Assembly (NCBI GenBank): GCA_009692185.1
Contig: SHZT01000009.1
Span: 49,335 to 113,334, forward strand
Direction of reading: 5' to 3'
Length of the DNA stretch: 64,000 nt
From: Gemmatimonadota bacterium
Lineage (GTDB): Bacteria > Gemmatimonadota > Gemmatimonadetes > Gemmatimonadales > GWC2-71-9
Below, piece after piece: positions 4,684 through 54,437 of this stretch (positions are counted from its first letter, which is position 1; each line of letters begins with the position of its first letter). A program made the translations under genes and the position numbers. Below the pieces are notes generated by a model. The model worked only from the letters and a program-made list of their open reading frames with translations. It was not told the origin of the DNA and searched no databases.

Positions 4684-5499
4684 TTGAAAATCTTTGCCGA
4701 CCAGGCGCTGTCCCGGCGCCTCGAACGAACAGAAGCGACGGCCAACGCGCGGTTCGTCGAGGCACGGGCTTCCCTTTTCCCGAAAAGCGGTGCCACCTGG
4801 ATCGAAGTCGCCGGCGCCTACGCCATGTTCGACGGCGTGGACTCGCCGTGCACCCAGACGTTCGGGCTGGGCGTGTTTCAGGCGCCCACGGTGAGTGACT
4901 TCGAAACCATCGAGCAGTTCTTCCGGGAACTGAAGGCGCCGATGCATCACGAGGTCAGTCCATTGGCTGACCCCGCGACACTTGCCCTGCTCACCCAGCG
5001 GGGGTATCAGCCGATGGAGCTATCCAGCGTGACGTTCTGCCCGATCGAGGAAGCCCTCGCGCTGGCCAATCCGCCGGACACCACGATCAAGACGCGGCTG
5101 ATCCGCAAAGGTGAAGGCCAACTCTGGGCGGAGACGGCGGCGAACGGATGGGCTGACTCGGCGCCGAACGGCGTCCTGACGGACCTGATGCGCGTCACTG
5201 CCGAGCGACCGGAAGCGCTTCCGTTCCTGGCGGAACTGAACGGCGCACCTGTCGCGGCCGGCTCGTTGGCCATTACCGCTGGCGTCGCCTTCCTGGCCGG
5301 GGCGAGCACGATCCCGAGTGCGCGAAGACAAGGCGCCCAGCTGGCGCTATTGAGCGGCCGATTGCGCTACGCGGCGGAACAGGGGTGTGATATCGCGATG
5401 ATGTGCGCGGCCCCCGGGAGTGGTTCCCAGCGCAATGCCGAGCGGAATGGGTTCCGGATCGCCTACACGCGGCTCAAGTGGCAGCTGGCTCCTTGCTAG
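4684..5499 (+). CDS. GNAT family N-acetyltransferase
   Basis: The C-terminal acetyl-CoA motif is ARRQGAQLALLSGRLRYAAEQGCD...RNAERNGFR. Confidence 0.75.
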   Translation: MKIFADQALSRRLERTEATANARFVEARASLFPKSGATWIEVAGAYAMFDGVDSPCTQTFGLGVFQAPTVSDFETIEQFFRELKAPMHHEVSPLADPATLALLTQRGYQPMELSSVTFCPIEEALALANPPDTTIKTRLIRKGEGQLWAETAANGWADSAPNGVLTDLMRVTAERPEALPFLAELNGAPVAAGSLAITAGVAFLAGASTIPSARRQGAQLALLSGRLRYAAEQGCDIAMMCAAPGSGSQRNAERNGFRIAYTRLKWQLAPC

Positions 5500-6670
5500 A
5501 GGGCCCCAGCAACAAGGCCAACGCCAGCACGCCGCCAGCCAGGCCGCTCACGATGAGCGCCGCGGGCCCACCCATCCGCGCATACACCATCCCGAACGTG
5601 ATGCCTCCCAGAAGCCCGGCGATGCCCACGCTTGCGTGGTAGATGCCGAACGTCTTCCCCACGCCCCTGTCTCTCGCCGCGGCGGCCACGAGCGCCCGTT
5701 CCGGTGATTCCGTGAGCGCGGCCACCAGCCCGAACACGAGGAACCAGCCCACGCCGCTCCACGGACTCGTGATCGTGGCCATCGCCATGCACACGAGCCA
5801 GTACGCGAACCACCCGCCGAGCATCACGGACTTCGGGCCCAGGGAATCGGACAGCCGGCCGCCGGGATAACTCAGCGTCGTCCGAATGACATGCAACGCG
5901 GCCCATACGAGAGGGGTGAGGGCCACCGGCAGCCCCAGATCCTTCAGGCGCAGCAGGAACAGCATCTCGGGGAACCGGGCGAAGGCGAACAGGACGATGA
6001 GATAGAGGAGAGAGTTGGGCTGGCGTTTCGCGTTGTTCGGGAAGGGGGAAGCGGGAAGCGGGAAGGGGTTGTCCGCTTCCCCCTTCCCGCTTCCCGCTTC
6101 CCCTCTCACCGCCCAAAACACAGCCAACACCGCAATCAGTCCCGGCACCACGCTCCACACGATCACACGGTCCGGGGAAAGTCCCACCTGGCTCAGCAGG
6201 AGCCACGCCACCAGCGGTCCGACGACCGCGCCCGCGTGGTCCATGGCCCGGTGAAACCCGAACGCACGGCCGCGCATGTCGGGCGTCACGGCATCCGCGA
6301 TCACGGCGTCGCGCGGCGGCGTGCGTAAGCCCTTCCCGACGCGATCTGTCGCGCGGAGCGCGATCACCTGCCACGCGGCCGTGGTCGCGCCGATTACGGG
6401 CCGGGTCACCGCGGCGATGCCGTAGCCGGCGAGGATCAGCGGCCGGCGGAGCCGCGGGCGGTCCGCCAGGAATCCGGACCAGAGCTTGGCGGCGGCGGAC
6501 AGCGCCTCGGAGATCCCGTCGAACAGGCCAAGCGAGAGGGCGCCGCCACCCAGCGACGCCACGAGCGCCGGGATGAGCGGGTAGATCATCTCGCTGGCGA
6601 GATCGTTGAAAAAGGAGACGAGGCCCAGGGATTTGACGACGGGCGGGAGGCCCCGCTCCGATTCACTCAC
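5474..6670 (-). CDS. MFS transporter
   Basis: It has about 12 hydrophobic segments and MFS loop motifs (DRPRLRRPLIL, DRVGKGLRTPPRDA). The central loop carries the repeat-derived insert GEAGSGKGEADNPFPLPASPFP. Confidence 0.85.
   Translation of the reverse strand: MSESERGLPPVVKSLGLVSFFNDLASEMIYPLIPALVASLGGGALSLGLFDGISEALSAAAKLWSGFLADRPRLRRPLILAGYGIAAVTRPVIGATTAAWQVIALRATDRVGKGLRTPPRDAVIADAVTPDMRGRAFGFHRAMDHAGAVVGPLVAWLLLSQVGLSPDRVIVWSVVPGLIAVLAVFWAVRGEAGSGKGEADNPFPLPASPFPNNAKRQPNSLLYLIVLFAFARFPEMLFLLRLKDLGLPVALTPLVWAALHVIRTTLSYPGGRLSDSLGPKSVMLGGWFAYWLVCMAMATITSPWSGVGWFLVFGLVAALTESPERALVAAAARDRGVGKTFGIYHASVGIAGLLGGITFGMVYARMGGPAALIVSGLAGGVLALALLLGPSSKEPAAT
6045..6103. repeat. perfect 24-bp inverted repeat with 11-nt loop, built of GGGAAGC heptamers, inside the MFS CDS
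   Basis: GGGGAAGCGGGAAGCGGGAAGGGG (6045-6068) pairs with CCCCTTCCCGCTTCCCGCTTCCCC (6080-6103). The arms are exact reverse complements (hand-checked). Confidence 0.9.
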
Positions 6671-9597: not shown

Positions 9598-10791
9598 ATG
9601 ACCGACACCATTTCCGCTTTGTCCCGCCACCCGGCGCTCACCCGCGGTCACGAACGCCTGATTCGCACAGACGCCCGCACCGTCGCGTGGCAAACGGCGA
9701 TCTGCGAGACGCCCGCGCCAACTGGCCGGGAACAGGCCCGGGGCGCCAAGGTCTCCGGGTTACTGCGCGAGATCGGCTTGACGTCGGTGTCCACTGACGA
9801 CGTCGGCAACGTGATCGCGTGGTGGGGTCCCGCGGACCGGGCCCCGGTGGTCATCGCCGCGCACCTCGACACCGTATTCGGCCCCGGGGTAGATGTGTCA
9901 GTTCGAAAGGACGGCGACCGGCTTATCGGGCCCGGCATTACAGACAATGCGCGCGGCCTGGCCGGCATGCTCGCCCTGGCCGATGTCGTGGCGTCGGGCC
10001 AATGGGCGACCGCGAAGCCCATCGCTTTCGTCGCCACGGTCGGCGAGGAAGGCGCGGGCGACCTGCGTGGCGTGCGGCATCTCTTTGGCGAACGGAAGCT
10101 CGCGGCGGATTCGGTCATCGTGCTGGACGGCGCCGGCGACGACCGCGTGGTCCATGGCGGCCTGGGGTGCCGCCGCTATCGGTTCATGTTCCGTGGCCCC
10201 GGCGGCCACTCGTGGTCCGCATTCGGCGCGCCGAACCCGGCCCACGCGGCGAGTACGCTCACGCAGGCCGTGGCCGAACTGCCCGGCAGGGAAACGCCGC
10301 GTACGACCTGCTCCGTCGTGGGAATCGGCGGCGGAACCAGCCTCAACTCAATACCCGATGAGGCATGGGTCGAAATTGACCTTCGGAGCGAGGGCACCGC
10401 GCCGCTTGAGGAGATCGAACGCGTGCTCCACGCCGCGGCCCGGCTCGGAATGGATCGTGAAAATGCCCGAAAAACGCTGGGGAGCCGAGCGCTCGACCTG
10501 ACCGTGGCGGTCATCGGAGATCGGCCCTCCGGCGTGACACCGGCCGACCACCCGCTGGTGCAGGCTGGTCTGGATGCCACGCGCGCAGTCGGCCGGCGGC
10601 CGGCGCTCGCGACTGCCTCCACGGACGCCAACATTCCGATTTCCCTGGGAATTCCGGCGATCGCGTTGGGGGCCGGCGGCAAAGCCGGAGACACGCACAG
10701 CGCAACGGAGTGGTTTGAGAATGCCGATGGACCGGCGGGAATATTTCGGGCGTTGCTGGTGCTGGCCGCGGCTGCCGGGCTCAACAAATGA
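9598..10791 (+). CDS. M20/M25/M40 family metallopeptidase
   Basis: The sequence shows ..VVIAAHLDTVF..., GITDNARG and GEEGAGDLRG metal-ligand context. The start is chosen at MTDTISAL (9598). Confidence 0.8.
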   Translation: MTDTISALSRHPALTRGHERLIRTDARTVAWQTAICETPAPTGREQARGAKVSGLLREIGLTSVSTDDVGNVIAWWGPADRAPVVIAAHLDTVFGPGVDVSVRKDGDRLIGPGITDNARGLAGMLALADVVASGQWATAKPIAFVATVGEEGAGDLRGVRHLFGERKLAADSVIVLDGAGDDRVVHGGLGCRRYRFMFRGPGGHSWSAFGAPNPAHAASTLTQAVAELPGRETPRTTCSVVGIGGGTSLNSIPDEAWVEIDLRSEGTAPLEEIERVLHAAARLGMDRENARKTLGSRALDLTVAVIGDRPSGVTPADHPLVQAGLDATRAVGRRPALATASTDANIPISLGIPAIALGAGGKAGDTHSATEWFENADGPAGIFRALLVLAAAAGLNK

Positions 10792-10814
10792 GAAGTAAGA
10801 AGTGAGAAGTAAGA
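10789..10814. repeat. left 26-bp terminal inverted repeat of the four-helix-bundle cassette
   Basis: TGAGAAGTAAGAAGTGAGAAGTAAGA. Its first three bases are the stop codon of the M20 peptidase gene. Confidence 0.9.
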
Positions 10815-10819
10815 CGGAG

Positions 10820-11176
10820 TTACTCGCGTCGAACCTTCTTCAGCAAACCCATCACCAACGCCTGACTCTCCCGTGCCGTGGCAACGGCCTTCGCCACCAC
10901 GTCACCCGGCACGAGTTGGGACTCCTCGAGGAGCTCCAAGAGGTCAGATGTTTCCACCGCGGAACCGTAGGCAATCACGAGATGGTTTCTGAAGCGACGC
11001 GATGAGCGTACGGCGTAGCCTTCGGCAATGTTCAATTGCACGGACAGGGCGGCACGCTGAAGCTGGTTGAACACCGCCGACGCCGACGGCTGCCAATGCT
11101 TGCGGCAGAGTTCCAGCACCTGCAGAACCACCGCGTGCGCCCGCTGCCACGCCAAGAGCGTCTTGTGGGTCTGCAT
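10820..11176 (-). CDS. four-helix-bundle protein (23S rRNA intervening-sequence protein / Avd-like family)
   Basis: The translation is MQTHKTLLAWQRAHAVVLQVLELCRK...QLQRAALSVQLNIAEGYAVRSSRRFRNHLVIAYGSAVETSDLLELL. The NIAEGY..R and A.GS..E signatures are typical of this family. Confidence 0.85.
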   Translation of the reverse strand: MQTHKTLLAWQRAHAVVLQVLELCRKHWQPSASAVFNQLQRAALSVQLNIAEGYAVRSSRRFRNHLVIAYGSAVETSDLLELLEESQLVPGDVVAKAVATARESQALVMGLLKKVRRE

Positions 11177-11250
11177 TTCACGAGAGTAATCACCGAGCCG
11201 TGGCAGGAGAGGAGCGAACAAACGCGGGGTGGAGCGAAAAAGCGCGACTT

Positions 11251-11276
11251 TCTTACCTCTCACTTCTTACTTCTTA
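11251..11276. repeat. right 26-bp terminal inverted repeat of the four-helix-bundle cassette
   Basis: TCTTACCTCTCACTTCTTACTTCTTA. Its reverse complement matches the left repeat at 24 of 26 positions. Its last three bases are the stop codon (TAA on the minus strand) of the nucleotidyltransferase gene. Confidence 0.9.
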
Positions 11277-16821: not shown

Positions 16822-16823
16822 GG

Positions 16824-16899
16824 TAAGAAGTGAGAGGTGAGAAGTAAGAAGGAGAGCCGCCACCTTCTTGCTTCTCACTTCTTACGTCTTACTTCTCAC
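16824..16899. repeat. cargo-less hairpin of the same GAGAAGT/AAGAAGT repeat family (about 28-bp stem, 11-nt loop)
   Basis: TAAGAAGTGAGAGGTGAGAAGTAAGAAGG-AGAGCCGCCAC-CTTCTTGCTTCTCACTTCTTACGTCTTACTTCTCAC. Hand pairing gives 24 Watson-Crick pairs, 3 G-U pairs and 1 mismatch. It lies between the porin stop and the TPM gene start. Confidence 0.85.
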
Positions 16900-16915
16900 T
16901 ATCTTTCCCGGCGCG

Positions 16916-17716
16916 ATGATCTTCCCCGTACTCGCTCTCGCCATCCAAATCCAGCTCACAGCGCCGTCGGGCTACGTCAACGACTTCGCCGGCGTGCTCG
17001 AAGGCACGTCGCGCGCCGCGATAGTCGCGCTGATCGACGAGGTGCGGCAGAAGTCGGGCGGTGAAATCGTCGTGGTGACCCTCCGGGACCTGGGTGGCCG
17101 CGCTTCGATTGACGTCGCGCGGGACATCGGCCGGCAGTGGAAGGTCGGGGCGATGGGCGGCCCCGGAGACCGCGCCCGGAACGCCGGCGTCGTCCTCCTG
17201 TTCAAGCCCGGCGGGCGACCGGGAGACGGGCAGGCGGACATTGCCATCGCTACCGGCACCGGCACCGAAGGGTTCGTCACCGACGCGCTGGCCGGGCGAA
17301 TACGCGATGCCATCGGCCGGCAATCGGTCGAAGCAGGCAGCTACGCCGAGGGGTTGCCCGTGGGCGTCGCCATGCTCGCCCGGGCCTATGCCACCGAGTT
17401 CGGGTTCGAGTTGACCGGCGCGGCGGCCGAGCAGATTCCGGAAGGTGGTGGAAGAATCACCATCCCCGGTCCGTTCGCCGTTCTGATCGCGCTTTTCGTG
17501 TTCATCATGTTCGTGTCGATTGTCCGGCAACTCGCGCACCAGCGGGGCGGCTCGTTCCTCGGCACGCTTTTCTGGATCGCCATGAGTCAGCAGGGGCGTC
17601 GCGGCGGCTGGGGTGGCGGGCGTGGCTGGGGTGGCGGCGGAGGCGGGGGTGGAGGCTTCGGTGGTTTCGGTGGCGGCGGCGGCTTCGGTGGCGGCGGCGC
17701 ATCGGGGAGGTTCTGA
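16916..17716 (+). CDS. TPM (TLP18.3/Psb32/MOLO-1, YgcG-like) domain protein with Gly-rich tail
   Basis: Contains SGYVNDFAGVLEGTSRAAIVALIDEVRQKSGGEIVVVTL, then a TM segment, then GGWGGGRGWGGGGGGGGGFGGFGGGGGFGGGG. The start at 16916 lies just beyond the hairpin repeat. Confidence 0.8.
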   Translation: MIFPVLALAIQIQLTAPSGYVNDFAGVLEGTSRAAIVALIDEVRQKSGGEIVVVTLRDLGGRASIDVARDIGRQWKVGAMGGPGDRARNAGVVLLFKPGGRPGDGQADIAIATGTGTEGFVTDALAGRIRDAIGRQSVEAGSYAEGLPVGVAMLARAYATEFGFELTGAAAEQIPEGGGRITIPGPFAVLIALFVFIMFVSIVRQLAHQRGGSFLGTLFWIAMSQQGRRGGWGGGRGWGGGGGGGGGFGGFGGGGGFGGGGASGRF

Positions 17717-25720: not shown

Positions 25721-26299
25721 ATGAAGAGTGCCGTGGTTCTCCTTGCCGCCGCTTCGCTGGTCGGGTCGGGCACGCTGTCGGCCCAGCAACCGGCCGCCGC
25801 CCCGCCGGCGCCGCCACCGCTCGAGATCGGCGCCGTGGCGCCGGACTTCGCCATGCCGGGCGCCACCCGCTACGGCGTTCTGCGGGACCCGATCAAGCTC
25901 AGCGACTTCAAAGGGAAGACGGTCGTGCTGGCCTTCTTCTTCCGCGCCCGAACGCGTGGCTGAACCATCCAAATGCACGCGTACCGTGATCAGTACGCGC
26001 AGATCTTCAGAGGCGGACAGAACGTCGTCCTCATCGGCATCAGCGTAGACAGTGCCGGGGCGCTGGCTTCATGGGCCAGGGATGACCAGTTCCAGTTCCT
26101 GATGGGATCCGACACCGACCAGGCGGTCGGCAAGGCTTACGGCGCTATTCGCGGTGGCTCCGACAACCGGAACCTCTTCGTGGTGGGACCGGACGGGAAA
26201 ATTGCCTGGCGGGCGACGCCGTTCCGCGAGATAGACCCGCTGGCGTACACCGAGCTGGCAGCGGCGCTCGACAAGATCTCACCGCCCGAGCAGAACTAG
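25721..26299 (+). CDS. exported peroxiredoxin (AhpC/TSA-Bcp/AhpE-like) with TGA at the peroxidatic Cys position (candidate selenocysteine)
   Basis: ORFs 25721..25963 and 25973..26299 share one frame. Joined, they read ...FKGKTVVLAFFFRARTRG[TGA]TIQMHAYRDQYAQIF...VVLIGISVDS...DNRNLFVVGPDGKI. The signal peptide is MKSAVVLLAAASLVGSGTLSAQ. Confidence 0.7.
25978..25999 (+). promoter_or_regulatory. candidate bacterial SECIS-like hairpin
   Basis: CGCGTAC (25978-25984) pairs perfectly with GTACGCG (25993-25999). The loop is CGTGATCA. The stem starts 15 nt after the TGA at 25961-25963. Confidence 0.45.
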
Positions 26300-26394
26300 A
26301 CGGATAGGCGGATAGACAGGTAGAAAAAGGGCGGAGACCGATCTTGGTCCCCGCCCTTTCGTTATCTGTCCATCCGTCTATCCGCCTATCCGTC
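26299..26394. repeat. long inverted repeat built of GGATAGG/CGGATAG units, between convergent genes
   Basis: GACGGATAGGCGGATAGAC at 26299-26317 is the exact reverse complement of 26376-26394. The inner parts pair imperfectly. The right arm encodes the last residues and the stop of TlpA. Confidence 0.9.
26324..26359. terminator. bidirectional intrinsic terminator
   Basis: AAAAAGGGCGGAGACC-GATCTT-GGTCCCCGCCCTTT forms an 11-bp stem with one mismatch. It is flanked by an A-run and a T-run and sits between convergent genes. Confidence 0.7.
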
Positions 26395-43709: not shown

Positions 43710-44840
43710 TCACGGGTGCAACATGGAGACAGGCGTGGGACAAGTCAACCGGTCGACTATCGAGGCAACGATCCGCCGGGTCACATCACCCGTCCGCGCC
43801 GCCGCCCCATTGGCCGCCAAGTCGGGCGTCACCACGCCCTCGGCCACGGCCGCGCGGGCGGCCCGTTCGACGACCGCCGCCTCTTCATCGAGCCCCAGCG
43901 AATACCGAAGCAACATCGCCGCACTCAAGATGGTCCCCACCGGGTTCGCCACGCCCTTCCCTGCGATGTCTGGCGCGGACCCGTGAATCGGTTCATACAG
44001 GCCGCGAACCGGCCGGATGCCGGCACCCTCCCCCAGTGACGCCGAGGGCAGGAGGCCGATCGAGCCGGCGAGCATCGCGGCCTCATCGGTGAGAATGTCA
44101 CCGAACATGTTCTCGGTCAGGATCACGTCGAACGCAGCCGGCCACCGCACGAGGTCCATGGCGCAGGTGTCCACCAGCAAGTGATCGAGCGCGACGTGAG
44201 GGAACTCCGATCTTACCACCTCAGTCACGACGCGACGCCACAGCCGTGATGTTTCCAGCACATTGGCCTTGTCCACCGACGTGAGGCGGCCCCGCCGGGC
44301 CTGCGCGAACGCGGCGGCCACGCGGGTGACCCGCGCGATCTCGTCCGTGGTATACACGCAGAGATCGGTTGCCCGCTCCGCGCCTGCCGCACCGGTGAGC
44401 GTCTTTTCGCCGAAGTAGATCCCCCCCGTGAGCTCGCGAACGACCACGAGATCAACGCCCGCCAGCCGGTCCGCCTTGATCGGCGACGACCCGGAAGACT
44501 CGGGCCACACAACGACGGGCCGGATGTTGGCGAACACGCCGAGCCCCCGGCGGAGACCCAGCAGTCCCTGCTCCGGCCGCACGGCACCCGTCCAACGAGG
44601 ACCTCCGACCGCTCCGAGCAGGACGGCGTCGGCGCTCCGGCAGAGCGCGAGGGTATCGGGCGGCAGCGGCTGGCCGGTCGCGTCAATCGCGGCCCCGCCG
44701 ATCCCCGCCTCCACGAACGTGAATTCGTGTCCGAAGGCGCGCGCCACGGCCTCGAGCGTGTCCCTGCCCGCGGCTACCACTTCGGGACCGATGCCGTCTC
44801 CCGGCAGCAAAGCAATCCTGGCGCTTCGGGGCGCGGTCAC
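43710..44840 (-). CDS. leuB: 3-isopropylmalate dehydrogenase
   Basis: Contains RIALLPGDGIGPEV, LLGAVGGPRW and NMFGDILTDEAAMLAGSIGLLPSASL. The GTG start overlaps the leuD stop (GTGA). Confidence 0.95.
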   Translation of the reverse strand: MTAPRSARIALLPGDGIGPEVVAAGRDTLEAVARAFGHEFTFVEAGIGGAAIDATGQPLPPDTLALCRSADAVLLGAVGGPRWTGAVRPEQGLLGLRRGLGVFANIRPVVVWPESSGSSPIKADRLAGVDLVVVRELTGGIYFGEKTLTGAAGAERATDLCVYTTDEIARVTRVAAAFAQARRGRLTSVDKANVLETSRLWRRVVTEVVRSEFPHVALDHLLVDTCAMDLVRWPAAFDVILTENMFGDILTDEAAMLAGSIGLLPSASLGEGAGIRPVRGLYEPIHGSAPDIAGKGVANPVGTILSAAMLLRYSLGLDEEAAVVERAARAAVAEGVVTPDLAANGAAARTGDVTRRIVASIVDRLTCPTPVSMLHP

Positions 44841-45463
44841 GCGTCGCTGCGGGAAACGGCGAGGGTCGAAATGCGGGCAGCGTGCGCGCTCTCGAATGCG
44901 GCAATGTCGGGCTCCGCGCCCGCGAGGAAATCCAGCTCGTCCACGCCCTTGAGGAGGCCGTACCGCGAGAAGGGCGGAAGGGAAAACGACGTCGTCCGGC
45001 CATCGGCCAACTCGATCGTCTCGTTCGCCAGGTCCACCGTCAGCTCGGTGCCCGGCACCGCCGACACGAGCACGCCGTGGAACCCGGGCTCCACCTGTAT
45101 CGGGAGGAGCCCGTTGGCCAGCGCGTTGGCGCGGAATATGTCGGCGAAACGAGTGCTGATAACGGCGCGAAACCCGGCATCCTGGAGCGCCCACACCGCG
45201 TGCTCGCGCGAAGAGCCGCAACCGAAATTGTGGCCCGCCAGGAGGATCTCGGCACCGGCCGCCCCGGGCTGATTGAGCGGGAATTCCACCTTCTGCGCCC
45301 CGTCGGCCTGGTAACGCCAGTCATGAAACGCATGAGGGCCGAGACCGGTTCGTTCCGTGGTCTTCAGGAACCGGGCCGGAATGATCTGATCCGTATCAAT
45401 GTCATTGCCAGGAATGAGCACCCAGTGAGATGTGAACCGTCCTATCGGCGCGCGCGGACTCAT
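44837..45463 (-). CDS. leuD: 3-isopropylmalate dehydratase small subunit
   Basis: Contains [13 protein letters not shown] and [17 protein letters not shown]. The start forms an ATGA overlap with the leuC stop. Confidence 0.95.
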
Positions 45464-50147: not shown

Positions 50148-51707
50148 TCAGTCTAAGCCAAATTCCTTCAGCTTGCGATACAACGTTCTCTCGCCAATCT
50201 CGAGCTTCTGCGCCGCCCGCCGCCGGTTCCCCCGGGACTCCCGGAGCGCCGCCTCGATCGCCGCCCGTTCCACCTCGCTCATCTTCATCCCGGGCCGATA
50301 CACCACCTCGCCGCTTGCGGCCGCGAGAGCCCCGTCCGTCCTGCCCGTCCCGTCCGTCTGGTCGGACTCATCCACCCTGACTCCCACCTCGTACGCCGGC
50401 ACCCGCCCCATGTCGATCACTTCGACGCGTTGGGGCGATTCGTCGATTCGGTGACGCAACTGCTCGATCTGGAGCTTGAGCTCAACCAGCGACCGGAATA
50501 TGAACTCCAGTTCGTGACCCTGGAGCCCCGCGCCCCCACCCGCGCCCGGCCCAGGCACGCGCATCGGAAGGAGGCGTGTCCCGCCTTCCTTCACATCCCG
50601 CGGAATGTCGTTCGCCGTGACCTCGCGCCCGTGCGCCAGCACGACCATGGACTCGATGAGATTCCTGAGCTCGCGTACATTGCCCGGCCAGTGCGCGTTC
50701 ACCAGGATCTGCATCGCTTCGGCCGTGAGCCCCACGAACTGACGCCCATGCTGTGCGGAAAGCTCACGCACGAATTTGCGGATCAGGAGCGGGATGTCGC
50801 CCTTCCGCTCGCGAAGCGGCGGCAGGTAGATGGACAGGACGTTCAGCCGGTAGAACAGGTCGTCGCGGAACTGCCCGATCGACACCTGCTCCTTGAGCGA
50901 CCGGTTGGTTGCCGCGACCACCCGTACATCTACCCGGATCGCCTCGGCGCCGCCCACCCGGAAGAACGACTGGCTCTCGAGGACGCGGAGCAGCTTGACC
51001 TGCGTCGAGAGCGGCATCTCACCGACCTCGTCGAGGAACAGCGTCCCGCCGTTGGCCAACTCGAAACGCCCCAGCCGCCGCTCGGCCGCGCCGGTGAACG
51101 AGCCCTTTTCGTGGCCGAAGAGCTCGGACTCTAGAAGTGTCTCAGGCAGGGCCGCGCAATTGACCGCGACGAACGGCTTGGCGCGCCGGGGCGAGAGCGC
51201 GTGGATACCCTGCGCCACCAGTTCCTTGCCCGTGCCGGACTCCCCCTCGACCAGCACCGTCGAGGACACGGGCGCCATCTGCTCGATCTTGACCAGCACT
51301 TCCTGGATCGCCGGGCCTTCGCCGATGATGCCGGTCCGCTCCTGGAGCCGGCGGCGTTCGATGAGCCGCCGCGCCCGGGCGACGACATCGGCGGGGTCCA
51401 CCGGTTTCACCGCCCAAGCGGTGAGGCCGAGCCGCTGGGCGACCCGTGGCGGGTCTGCCTCGGTCGGCTCGAACAGGCCCAGCGTGGACACCGAACGGTC
51501 CCGTGCCATGGCGATGAGATCGGCAGCCGGCCGCTCATGGACCGCGCCACTCAGGATGACTACGTCGGGATCGGCGCCCGTGAGCACCGCGCGCACGTCG
51601 TCCATGGACGAAACCATCGTGGTGGCAAGACCGTCCTTCTCGAACGCCGCGTTGGCCCGCACGGCGGTCTCGAGGTCGTCCATGGTCAGCAGGACGCGGT
51701 CCGTCAT
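50148..51707 (-). CDS. sigma-54-dependent response regulator (receiver, AAA+, Fis-type HTH)
   Basis: Contains [11 protein letters not shown] (Walker A), the GSFTGA loop (GAFTGA type), FLDEVGEM and a C-terminal HTH ([20 protein letters not shown]). Confidence 0.9.
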
Positions 51708-52240
51708 TTGTGGTCCGTGGGAGCGCCGGCCAGCAACTGAACGGCGTGCTCGATGAGCGGCTCGAGGACGGTCAGCCCTTCCTTCACGCCTGACGGACTT
51801 CCGGGGAGGTTGACGATGAGCGCCTGGGCCCGCGTTCCCGCCAGCCCGCGGGACAACGCGCTGCGCGGCGTGTTCGCCTGCCCCGCCGCCCGAATGGCCT
51901 CGGCAATGCCGGGGGCCTCGCGCTCGATCACCGCCCGGGTGGCTTCGGGCGTGACGTCCCTGGGAGACAATCCGGTACCGCCAGTGGTCAGGATCACCTG
52001 CGCCACGTCGTCATCCGCCCAGCGGGAAATAACGGAGGCGATGCGGTCGGTTTCATCCGGCACGACTTCGCGGGCGGATACCTCGTAGCCGCGGGCGGCC
52101 ACCCAGTCGGCGATGGCCTTGCCGGACGTGTCCTCTCGCTTCCCCTGGAAGCCGAGGTCGGAAATGGTGAGCACAGCTACTCGAACCGGAGGGCGTCGCA
52201 CGGCCGCCGTACTTTTCCCTTTTCCCTTTTCCCTTTTCAC
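51704..52240 (-). CDS. mog: molybdopterin adenylyltransferase / MoaB-Mog family
   Basis: Contains [27 protein letters not shown] and NLPGSPSGV. The called GTG start (52240) reads [10 protein letters not shown] from the heptamer repeat. The real start may be an internal GTG (..AVRRPP). Confidence 0.8.
52212..52239. repeat. (CTTTTCC)n heptamer tract, which reads (GGGAAAA)n on the coding strand, at the gcvT/mog junction
   Basis: There are three exact heptamers and one partial copy. Confidence 0.9.
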
Positions 52241-53352
52241 GCCTTTGAAGCTTTCGCTTTCCTCGCACTTCCCTGCCGGTAGAACGGCATCCGTACCACC
52301 TCGGCTTCGATCCGCTTCCCGCGCGAGTCCACCTGGAAGCGCGTGCCTGGCTCAACCGAATGCGTGGGAAGGAACGTGGTGCCGATGCCTTCCTTGAGCG
52401 AGGGGCTGAATCCGCCGCTCCGGACGACGTCGATCTTGGTATCCCGCAGGTACACGTCGTACCCGTGGCGCGGAATCGCGCCCCGGTCGATCATCCGGAA
52501 CCCCACGAGCTTCCGCGTGACGCCCTTTTCCTTGATCGCGCGCAGGGCCTCCTGGCCCACGAACGGCTCGGCCTTGTTGAGCTTCACGATCCAGCCGAGC
52601 CCGGCCTCGTACGGGTTGATCGTGTCGTCGATGTCATTGCCGTAGAGCGCGTACCCCATTTCCAGCCGCAACGAATCCCGGGCACCCAGGCCGATCGGTG
52701 TCGCCCCGCCGGCTTCCACCAACGCCTTCCACATCACCCCCGCGTCGCGGTTCCGGAAATACAGTTCGAATCCGTCTTCCCCGGTGTAGCCCGTGCGGGA
52801 GACGAAGCACTGCACGCCGGCGATATCGCCGACCTTGAAGTGGTAGTACCCGATGTCATGCAGCGGGACCTGGGTGAGCGAACGCAGCAGCGTCTCCGCC
52901 TTGGGGCCCTGCACGGCGAGGAGTGACACCTCGTCCGAAATATTCCGGAGGCGTACGTCTCCCGACCGCCGTGAAGAGATGTGGGCCCAGTCCTTCTCGA
53001 TATTCGACGCGTTGACGACCATCATCAGCTTGTCGCCGAACTGGTAGACGATGCAGTCGTCCACCACGGTTCCCTGGTCGTTCAGAATGGCCGAGTACTG
53101 CGCCTGCCCGATATCGAGTGTCGAAACGTCGTTCGAGGTCATCCGGTTTACGAAGTCATTCCGCTCGCGGCCGGTCACTTCGAACTCGCCCATGTGGGAC
53201 ACGTCGAACACGCCGACCCCCGTGCGCACGGCCTCGTGCTCCTTTGTAATGCCGGTTGGGTACTGTACCGGCATCTCGTACCCGGCGAACGGGACGATCT
53301 TGCCCCCGGCCGCCACATGGAAGTCGTAGAAGGGCGTGCGTTTGAGTGTCAT
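52237..53352 (-). CDS. gcvT: glycine cleavage system aminomethyltransferase T
   Basis: Contains MTLKRTPFYDFHVAAGGKIVPFAGYEMPVQY and FDVSHMGEF. The start is chosen at 53352 (ATGA overlap with the argF stop). Confidence 0.95.
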   Translation of the reverse strand: MTLKRTPFYDFHVAAGGKIVPFAGYEMPVQYPTGITKEHEAVRTGVGVFDVSHMGEFEVTGRERNDFVNRMTSNDVSTLDIGQAQYSAILNDQGTVVDDCIVYQFGDKLMMVVNASNIEKDWAHISSRRSGDVRLRNISDEVSLLAVQGPKAETLLRSLTQVPLHDIGYYHFKVGDIAGVQCFVSRTGYTGEDGFELYFRNRDAGVMWKALVEAGGATPIGLGARDSLRLEMGYALYGNDIDDTINPYEAGLGWIVKLNKAEPFVGQEALRAIKEKGVTRKLVGFRMIDRGAIPRHGYDVYLRDTKIDVVRSGGFSPSLKEGIGTTFLPTHSVEPGTRFQVDSRGKRIEAEVVRMPFYRQGSARKAKASKA

Positions 53353-54299
53353 CGTGTTTTGCTTTTCCCTTTTCCCTTTTCCCTTTTCCCGCTTCTCGAT
53401 CCGCCCATCAACGTCGCCATCAACGCTTTCTGCACGTGAAGCCTGTTCTCCGCCTGGTCCCACACCCGGGAATGCGAACCTTCCATTACCTCGTCGGTGA
53501 CTTCCTCCCCACGGTGTGCGGGCAGGCAGTGAAGAAAAATGGCGTTCTTTGCGGCGAGCCCCATGAGATTGTCGTCCACCATGTATCCGTGAAACGCCAG
53601 CCGCCGTGCTTCGGCTTCCGCTTCCTGGCCCATCGAAGCCCAGACATCCGTGTTGATCACGTGCGCTCCCCTGGCTGCCTCTTCGGGCTCCTCGGTCACG
53701 GATACGTCGGCTCGAGACTTGGCCCACTCGAAAATCTCCCGGTTGGGCTCATAGCCCTCCGGGCAGGCGATGCGCAGGGTAAACCCCAGCTGGCCGGCCG
53801 CCTGCAACCACGTGTTGGCCATGTTGTTCCCGTCGCCGATCCACGCCACGACCTTGCCCTTCCAGCCGCCCAGGCATTCGCGCACCGTCAGGAGATCCGC
53901 GAGCACCTGGCAGGGGTGCAAGAGGTCCGTGAGTCCGTTGATGACCGGTACGGCCGCGTGACGGGCTAGGTCCTCGACCTCGTCGTGCGCATACGTCCGG
54001 ATGACGATCCCGTTCAGGTAGCGTGAGAGCACCCGCGCGGTGTCACGGATCGGCTCTCCCCGGCCCAGCTGGAGGTCACGAGACGAGAGGAACATGGGGT
54101 GCCCGCCGAGCTGATAGGTGCCCACCTCGAACGACACCCGGGTCCGCGTGCTGCTCTTGGCGAACAGCATCCCCACGGCCTTGCCGGCCAGTGGCCTGGC
54201 CAGGTACTTCCCCGCCTTCATCGCGGCCGCCATGTCCAGCACGGCCCCGATTTCCTTCGGGGAAAAGTCCGTCAGTGCGAGAAAGTCCCGTTTAGGCAT
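53349..54299 (-). CDS. argF: ornithine carbamoyltransferase
   Basis: Contains STRTRVSFE, HPCQVLAD, DVWASMGQE and HCLPAHRGEEV. The start is chosen at MPKRDF (54299). Confidence 0.9.
   Translation of the reverse strand: MPKRDFLALTDFSPKEIGAVLDMAAAMKAGKYLARPLAGKAVGMLFAKSSTRTRVSFEVGTYQLGGHPMFLSSRDLQLGRGEPIRDTARVLSRYLNGIVIRTYAHDEVEDLARHAAVPVINGLTDLLHPCQVLADLLTVRECLGGWKGKVVAWIGDGNNMANTWLQAAGQLGFTLRIACPEGYEPNREIFEWAKSRADVSVTEEPEEAARGAHVINTDVWASMGQEAEAEARRLAFHGYMVDDNLMGLAAKNAIFLHCLPAHRGEEVTDEVMEGSHSRVWDQAENRLHVQKALMATLMGGSRSGKREKGKGKSKTR
53354..53397. repeat. (CTTTTCC)4 heptamer tract, which reads (GGGAAAA)4 on the coding strand, at the argF/gcvT junction
   Basis: Four exact heptamers span 53362-53389, flanked by degenerate copies. 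They are translated as the argF tail [14 protein letters not shown]. Confidence 0.9.
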
Positions 54300-54437
54300 G
54301 ATTGAGCGTCCAAGTACGTCAAAATGACAGGGAAACATAACCACGAAGTGGGGGGGTGGCACCAAGTAGCGAGATTGGGCGACCCTGCTGGCTCCCACGG
54401 CATCTCTATGGCAACGTACGACCCCACAGGAGCACCC

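Follow-up and report, generated by a model that had tools for sequence, protein, structure and literature searches.

Heptamer sequences known as STRR (short tandemly repeated repetitive) were reportedly described in cyanobacteria by Mazel et al. in 1990, and to our knowledge they have stood unexplained since then. PF05635 ('IVP') proteins are very common, and we know of no function for them outside diversity-generating retroelements. STRR heptamers can lie inside the RNase P RNA gene, according to the passage of PMC2858038 that cites Vioque (1997). Intervening sequences (IVS) of 23S rRNA occur with or without an IVP open reading frame, as stated where PMC3936711 cites Ralph and McClelland (1993), and rRNA insertions have also been reported in CPR bacteria (bioRxiv 10.1101/2024.02.27.582315). 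In the literature that we searched, IVP is called 'functionally uncharacterized', and its genes are placed in rRNA insertions and inside cas loci. Among short palindromic elements, Rickettsia palindromic elements (RPE) measure about 100-150 bp, have a conserved family consensus and are not tandem repeats (PMC10969869). REP sequences are imperfect palindromes of about 35 nt with a conserved head, extragenic and tied to RAYT transposases, and Correia elements have defined TIRs, TA duplications and stems that are cut by RNase III (PMC10969869).

The element described here is a hairpin built from tandem heptamers and translated within the gene of an MFS transporter, in a 64-kb stretch of Gemmatimonadota DNA (the whole stretch that was analyzed, hereafter the window). 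It is like STRR in its tandem heptanucleotide arrays, which are dispersed and mostly intergenic, and in being able to occupy a tolerant helix or loop inside a functional gene. The likeness extends to the repeat unit of a close relative, L084 (GGGGACT, the complement of STRR1 CCCCAGT), and to cyanobacterial IVP genes (Calothrix, Anabaena), which are bracketed by such arrays. STRR have been described, however, for heterocystous cyanobacteria and not for Gemmatimonadota, and the STRR literature that we searched reports no inverted-pair hairpins, no in-frame translation in proteins, no periods of 8 or 10 and no link to PF05635.

With the IVS of 23S rRNA, the elements studied here share a long stem-loop with complementary ends, a loop that holds either a PF05635 gene or no open reading frame, and a tolerated site in a transcribed gene. 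Unlike an IVS, the hairpin lies in an MFS coding sequence and not in a 23S or 16S rRNA helix, is translated in a protein-coding gene instead of being excised from rRNA, and has arms made of tandem heptamers. RPE and intragenic MITEs are likewise palindromic, sit in frame in unrelated housekeeping genes and add a peptide at permissive sites. Unlike RPE, the present elements turn over their units fast, have arms that evolve in concert and belong to another phylum; at 69 nt, with no flanking direct repeat and with a unit that differs between close relatives, the hairpin has its in-frame behavior alone in common with RPE and MITEs. REP/BIME and Correia elements are also short dispersed palindromes, often found just downstream of genes and possibly forming a stem in mRNA. 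The element differs from both in being built from tandem heptamers with no duplication seen, and from REP/BIME in being intragenic and occurring only once in the window. Our literature searches, whose results were mostly noise, returned no prior description of an inverted heptamer-array family or of its link to IVP, and no mention of heptamer arrays flanking IVP genes.

A heptamer hairpin in the central loop of an MFS transporter

The host gene and the parts of the hairpin have the following positions in the window:

5474-6670, - strand: host gene, a 398-aa MFS_1 transporter, with the hairpin element in its TM6-TM7 cytoplasmic loop
6039-6107, - strand: hairpin element of 69 nt in which GGGAAGC/GGGAAGG heptamer arrays form an inverted pair; its in-frame translation gives MFS residues 188-211
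6045-6068: left arm of the stem with 24 perfect bp, + strand GGGGAAGCGGGAAGCGGGAAGGGG, which is pyrimidine-rich and lies 3' in the mRNA
6069-6079: hairpin loop, 11 nt, + strand TTGTCCGCTTC, partly pairable in a shifted register
6080-6103: right arm of the same stem, which is purine-rich, carries the G tracts and lies 5' in the mRNA

The host open reading frame matches Pfam MFS_1 (E=9e-37), and its product has twelve hydrophobic peaks. The hairpin is translated as a hydrophilic peptide, VRGEAGSGKGEADNPFPLPASPFP, which has hydrophobic segments on either side (169-187 and 221-239), as the central loop should; residues 189-219 of this loop have a mean hydropathy of -1.32. The two arms are complementary at 24/24 nt (100%) with 11 nt between them, and a second, longer and imperfect pairing joins 6039-6068 with 6073-6102 (30 nt, 90%). 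Tandem Repeats Finder reports a period of 7 with 4.0 copies per arm (CGGGAAG at 6038-6065; CTTCCCC at 6076-6103), and the purine fraction of the purine-rich arm is 0.93. By chance, an inverted repeat of 24 bp with perfect pairing and a loop of 3-60 nt would be expected about 1e-7 times per 64 kb of the same composition. Folded as RNA in the mRNA sense, the hairpin reaches -68.4 kcal/mol, with z = -8.9 relative to dinucleotide shuffles. Five G3+ tracts lie on the + strand of the element and four on the - strand; each strand carries a putative G-quadruplex motif (four G3+ tracts, loops of 1-7 nt), and the one on the + strand is the only canonical + strand motif in the 64-kb window. The original prediction had described a perfect 24-bp hairpin with an 11-nt loop, made of GGGAAGC heptamers, read in frame in the central MFS loop and carrying four or more G3+ tracts on both strands, and all of these descriptive points hold.

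L001, from an independent Logan assembly, and two ENA contigs encode an identical protein and contain an identical perfect hairpin. An assembly artefact was ruled out, as the architecture recurs in independent assemblies and on a finished plasmid of an isolate, and so was a rho-independent terminator, as the stem is followed on the mRNA strand by GAACAACGC, with no U run. An Rfam search of the hairpin at a permissive E-value returned no family above the gathering threshold and no rRNA at the locus; its matches were sub-threshold eukaryotic miRNA-precursor models alone, which match any long hairpin and are thus generic. No target-site duplication was found at the element, whose flanks (GTTGTTC and TCTCACC) have no common direct repeat, and the window of the source genome, a Gemmatimonadota MAG, holds neither a second GGGAAGC copy nor a GGGAAGC-armed IVP gene. 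Possible effects of the hairpin on the mRNA are a pause of the ribosome, cleavage by RNase III or the folding of the 5' arm into an RNA G-quadruplex.

Orthologous loops and the evolution of the arms

The element had been predicted to be a recent insertion of about 69 nt that happened to keep the frame, and the orthologous MFS proteins contradict its recency. In the 30 closest homologues the loop is as long as in the host, with no net gain of 23 residues, and peptides such as GNGKRETGN and REAGSGKRE, which correspond to tandem GGGAAAC/GGGAAGC read through three frames, are frequent in it. A relative with 81% amino acid identity (L082) has the same hairpin element with substitutions and a bulged stem. 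At the same identity, L084, which is syntenic over 15 kb, has a different perfect palindrome of 30 bp with GGGGRYT units, shifted by a few codons. L217, at about 67% identity, carries (GGGAAGC)x3.6 at the same site, its right arm decayed or lost, and L218 retains (GGGAAAC)x4.

The comparison also covered 80 further Gemmatimonadales MFS orthologues with 42-58% identity, whose loops were located by tblastn and MAFFT mapping. A very stable hairpin (z of -5 to -11) is present in the MFS-loop DNA of about 27 of the 80, with either period-7 units (GGGAGCT, GAGTCGC, GAGGRCG) or period-10 units (GACGGTAGGA, GGGGAAGGAC, GGTGGAGGAY, CGGTCGARGG, GGGGCGGCGA); read in the coding sense, the purine-rich arm invariably precedes the other. 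When clades were ordered by protein similarity with the loop excluded, period-10 hairpins filled one large clade, with visibly decayed versions inside it; a second clade held period-7/8 hairpins, and other clades were hairpin-free. Such hairpin-bearing clades with decayed forms nested in them argue for an old inherited feature with occasional decay, not for a recent insertion. We conclude that the hairpin of the MFS loop is, on this distribution, old in its gene lineage and vertically inherited.

The two arms have changed together. Across 15 aligned period-10 loops, compensatory double changes were seen in 15 of the 25 consensus pairs. Paired cells made up 88.8% of the total, a level that 0/500 shuffles reached, compared with 76.6% for shuffled partners and 37-59% for slid partners, and double changes affected 64 cells against 21.6 expected. 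The peptide varies freely among orthologues while the arms stay complementary; since it is not conserved, protein-level selection is not the cause of the arm symmetry, which agrees with what had been proposed for the stem. The repeats of the period-10 loops also bear a coding constraint: in the unit CGG-TAG/TAA, two codon phases have the stop triplet as their most frequent form, and it is lacking solely where translation would read it as a stop. This avoidance of in-frame TAG/TAA gives the period-10 stems their regular mismatches.

Repeat units were compared in any register over 8-nt cores, taking three left-arm and three reverse-complemented right-arm units per loop. In the period-10 clade, the six units of any one species share 84% identity, whereas units at equivalent positions in different species share only 66% (0/5000 permutations). 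The units of the GGGAAGC element are themselves near-identical, and its relative L084 has a different unit that is also homogeneous. Likeness of units within a species, whatever the register, points to homogenization at the DNA level within and between arms, which selection on pairing alone does not predict. The homogenization would involve slippage among the units of an arm and intrastrand template switching or conversion between arms. Read against these comparisons, the perfect stem is a sign of continuing homogenization, not of youth.

The MFS loop is occupied in about one third of the species, against two or three possible cases among other genes in 1.17 Mb of flanking DNA, and this excess could reflect a gene-specific function. 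The stem might be a functional mRNA structure maintained by selection on RNA pairing, either as a pause that allows membrane insertion of the N-domain before the C-domain or as an RNase III/decay site that sets transporter levels. Such a role would account for the persistence of hairpins in the same loop across clades with compensatory covariation, for their presence in about 27 of 80 orthologues when very few other genes have one, and for a stability of -68 kcal/mol. We nevertheless think it unlikely. A hairpin is missing from over half of the orthologues, decayed versions occur inside hairpin clades, and close relatives have a solo array only, while the likeness of units in any register lies outside what pairing selection alone predicts. 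The same architecture, and even the same unit, recurs between genes, on the flanks of IVP genes and within proteins of other kinds (see below). Moreover, ribosomes normally keep a stem open in a translated coding sequence and would be expected to do so here.

Dispersed arrays and their association with PF05635 genes

Other repeat arrays in the window are the following:

10789-10814, + strand: left heptamer array of an IVP cassette (TGAGAAG TAAGAAG and further units); its first unit is the stop codon of a Peptidase_M28 gene
10820-11176, - strand: PF05635 gene (23S_rRNA_IVP, four-helix bundle), 118 aa, nested between the inverted arrays (E=6e-20)
11250-11276, - strand: right heptamer array of the IVP cassette, which repeats the left one in inverted orientation; an NTP_transferase gene has its stop codon, TAA (reverse complement of 11274-11276), in the first unit
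16823-16900, no strand assigned: second cargo-less hairpin, GTRAGAA x4 / CTTCTYA x4, intergenic, beginning 2 nt past a TAG stop
26299-26394, no strand assigned: inverted period-8/9 arrays, GACGGATAG, around a terminator-like GC hairpin, just past a TAG stop
52212-52238, - strand: solo (GGGAAAA)x4 array where two genes adjoin, at the 5' end of ORF 51704-52240
53362-53390, - strand: solo (GGGAAAA)x4 array at a gene junction, encoding the C-terminal tail (14 letters) of ORF 53349-54398

The arrays of the IVP cassette are inverted GAAGTAA arrays, on which two genes converge in such a way that the stop codon of each is the first array unit. At the syntenic site in L084, the cassette is missing. The arrangement recurs widely: 13 of the 15 IVP genes examined sit between inverted tandem arrays (both arms), and ordinary genes are not bracketed in this way. 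The IVP genes of the window and of two other loci (L043 and L155) all lie between inverted period-7 arrays, and arrays of this kind also enclose seven more IVP genes (L205-L211), which were selected solely for being on long contigs. On a finished plasmid of a Gemmatirosa kalamazoonensis isolate, inverted (GAGGGCAG)n arrays enclose an IVP-like open reading frame. In Calothrix, a gene annotated as 'S23 ribosomal protein' has (GGGTGTA)n arrays on both sides, and the IVP gene of Anabaena sp. 90, located between cas6 and cas4, is flanked by (ACAGGTG)n arrays; two IVP copies of Nostoc PCC 7120 have a downstream array only, beside an ISL3 transposase. A tblastn search of plasmids with the IVP protein gave no matches at 1e-8 and 10 matches at 1e-3. 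An IVP cassette and a cargo-less hairpin co-occur at three loci (the window, L043 and L155), with the same unit in each. None of the period-10 hairpins of the sister clade was seen flanking an IVP gene.

Dispersal of the repeats is seen at several scales. We counted 29 tandem-repeat hairpins in 1.17 Mb of Gemmatimonadales DNA, and, apart from the ones in the MFS loop, almost all are intergenic, often directly after stop codons. The element of the window has the features of an inverted tandem-heptamer array, with at least three period-7 units per arm and reverse-complement arms that are purine-rich 5', and in other organisms GGGAAGC is present at loci that are not homologous, among them one where it encloses a PF05635 gene. 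At least 120 metagenome contigs, ranging in GC from 39% to 75%, contain the exact 20-mer (GGGAAGC)x~3, and in none of the 80 of them that were fetched does it lie in the MFS gene (0/80). Most (GGGAAGC)n metagenome loci are 'solo' under a strict partner test (same unit, at most one mismatch per unit), which undercounts diverged partner arms. A 9.9-kb contig, L155, has five inverted GGGAAGC pairs, with one (173-766) around a PF05635 gene and two after stop codons; its photolyase contains one of the five in frame at residues ~116-141, between the two domains of the protein. Further proteins in which such a sequence is read in frame, with a Pfam domain before and after it, are NAD synthetase (exactly in the inter-domain linker), alanyl-tRNA synthetase, two SDRs and an S58 peptidase.

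Units inside coding sequences are stop-free in all six frames, and GGGAAGC arrays are among those with this property, so that an open frame at the MFS locus does not call for the chance preservation that had been suggested. Typical units at IVP flanks (GTGAGAA, GTAAGAA, GTGAGCG, GTGAACG, GTGAGAG, GTAAGGA, AGCTAAC) have a stop in every purine-strand frame within 21 nt.

No transposase, reverse transcriptase or target-site duplication was found for the element, so it is from the distribution only that we infer mobility. Arrays are also found around GIY-YIG mini-elements and around a plain terminator, and they may therefore be outgrowths around any palindrome instead of the ends of IVP cassettes. 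An origin in place, with no movement at all, is in our judgment improbable. A purine-rich seed would have been expanded by slippage and an inverted copy made by template switching, similar arrays being independent products of the same mutational bias. This would suit the very high diversity of units, which differ even between relatives at 81% identity, as well as the range of centers that arrays surround (terminator, GIY-YIG element, IVP gene), the commonness of solo arrays and the failure to find a transposition signature. It does not readily explain why a unit recurs at several loci of a contig or genome and matches that of the IVP cassette there (window, L043, L155), why IVP genes are bracketed in 13 of 15 cases and ordinary genes are not, or why the IVP cassette of the window is absent at the syntenic L084 site.

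Nature of the element and its significance

Two further explanations carry very little weight. A recent one-off insertion of about 69 nt in frame, as the original prediction had it, is very improbable: it would fit the perfect stem and the hairpin-free state of the nearest of 80 GTDB-representative species (about 60% identity), but orthologue loops are equally long, the element is also in L082, GGGAAGC is at the same site in L217, and concerted evolution explains a perfect stem without recency. We give equally little credence to an element that acts through a G-quadruplex, folded either in DNA or by the purine-rich mRNA arm on the 5' side, instead of through a hairpin, for although each strand has four to five G3+ tracts and the motif is the sole one on the + strand of the window, most family members, many MFS-loop hairpins included, are without G3 tracts (GAGTCGC, GACGGTAGGA, GTGAGAA, AGCTAAC), and a fully complementary partner arm strongly favors a duplex or hairpin.

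We propose instead, with moderate confidence, that the hairpin is a cargo-less, stop-free member of a family of inverted tandem repeats, that it sits in a permissive linker and is vertically inherited, and that its symmetry is due to concerted evolution. The family would comprise dispersed inverted tandem-repeat arrays, mostly of period 7 and in some lineages of period 8 or 10, with purine-rich 5' arms and their reverse complement as 3' arms. It appears to be common in Gemmatimonadota and present in cyanobacteria too, where its heptamers would be the STRR. In a long form, two arrays bracket a PF05635 four-helix-bundle gene; in a short form, the arms pair into a hairpin whose loop measures about 10-20 nt. 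The hairpin would persist in the MFS coding sequence because GGGAAGC and its complement are stop-free in any frame, because its length is a multiple of three, and because the linker tolerates a peptide that is first Gly/Glu/Lys-rich and then Pro/Ser/Phe-rich. For the host it would be neutral or mildly costly.

A wider reading of all the observations is possible, and we advance it only tentatively. The inverted arrays and the PF05635 gene might together form a distinct, so far undescribed class of small cassettes in Gemmatimonadota and cyanobacteria, the same entity as rRNA intervening sequences and STRR. The arms would form a long dsRNA, by which the cassette could reside in any transcript; stop-rich units would insulate it from incoming ribosomes. 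Cargo-less, stop-free derivatives would colonize protein linkers, as in the MFS loop, their symmetry being kept by active homogenization that may involve the IVP protein.

These repeats have consequences for genome analysis and for the biology of the sequences that carry them. Most IVP contigs are only 0.5-3 kb long, and arrays therefore probably break contigs during assembly; in annotation, they can yield spurious C-terminal tails or gene fusions. The association of IVP genes with arrays may deserve more attention than the hairpin itself: the finding that, in both phyla, inverted tandem arrays nearly always enclose these genes ties the IVP and STRR puzzles together in a testable framework. 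The hairpin of the MFS loop, for its part, would represent a route other than that of RPE by which selfish or structural DNA enters housekeeping proteins, under the rule that stop-free units alone survive there, and in linkers only.

The IVP cassette in the window

In the window, an IVP cassette (10789-11276; a PF05635, 23S_rRNA_IVP, gene between inverted tandem heptamer arrays) sits between convergent Peptidase_M28 and NTP_transferase genes, both of which take their stop codon from the first unit of a cassette array. The syntenic site in the relative L084 (L084:3724-3749), in contrast, has no IVP cassette, and its 20-nt spacer is a small heptamer array (ACCGTGC x2.7). Among close IVP homologues, most contigs are just 0.5-3 kb long, which suggests that the arrays flanking IVP genes break short-read assemblies.

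Tandem arrays within and between genes

Further repeats in the window are:
26299-26394, inverted GACGGATAG arrays around an inner GC hairpin
53362-53390 and 52212-52238, solo (GGGAAAA)x4 arrays
17601-17699, GC-rich period-9/18 repeat, forming the C-terminal tail of ORF 16868-17716

The inverted arrays directly follow a TAG stop. With its runs of A and of T (AAAAAGGGCGGAGACC...GGTCCCCGCCCTTT), the inner hairpin resembles a bidirectional terminator. The solo array at 53362-53390 codes for the C-terminal tail of an ORF resembling ornithine carbamoyltransferase, and the ATG of the next gene falls within this array; the one at 52212-52238 is at the 5' end of the next ORF downstream. The period-9/18 repeat, which encodes a Gly-rich tail (GGWGGGRGWGGGGGGGGGFGGFGGGGGFGGGG), is unrelated to the heptamer arrays.

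Stop-free ORFs also cross arrays of (GGGAAGC)n, the heptamer of the MFS-gene hairpin, in two other records, linking FabA-like and hexapeptide (LpxA-like) domains at L110:774-1925 and an SDR to a poly(A) polymerase-like domain at L102:2923-5049. These joined ORFs are either genuine fusions or neighboring genes bridged by the stop-free array.

GIY-YIG mini-elements and nested hairpins

A second mini-element family was observed besides the tandem-array hairpins. It consists of a GIY-YIG nuclease ORF (about 95-112 aa; PF01541 match, E=1e-13) flanked by inverted repeats YCATCCCGAGCGNAGCGAGGGAYC, a motif found 31 times in 1.17 Mb of Gemmatimonadales DNA, and includes hairpin copies that lack the ORF.

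L030:15394-15769, L078:7401-7773 and L079:15361-15729, ORF-bearing copies
L019:7761-7876, L030:19111-19180 and L044:13-98, short copies
L026:520-770, L047:4430-4635 and L030:4560-4780, nested elements, with a GIY-YIG-type palindrome inside outer tandem-repeat arms

Because the period-8 outer arms of the nested elements (GGCGGGTA or GGACGGAA) enclose GIY-YIG-type palindromes, we conclude that either other hairpin elements are drawn to tandem-array hairpins, or the latter build up around such elements.

IVP genes in cyanobacteria

On plasmids alpha and gamma of Nostoc PCC 7120, the IVP genes, identical to each other, lie immediately 3' of an ISL3 transposase and retain the downstream heptamer array alone; the IS seems to have taken the place of the upstream arm. 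On Anabaena sp. 90 pANA02 (43897-45127), heptamer arrays bracket an IVP gene between cas6 and cas4; on the upstream side, ACAGGTG/ACAGGGA units extend over more than 260 nt. IVP genes have been reported in cas loci (PMC3936711), and cassette insertion may by itself account for them.
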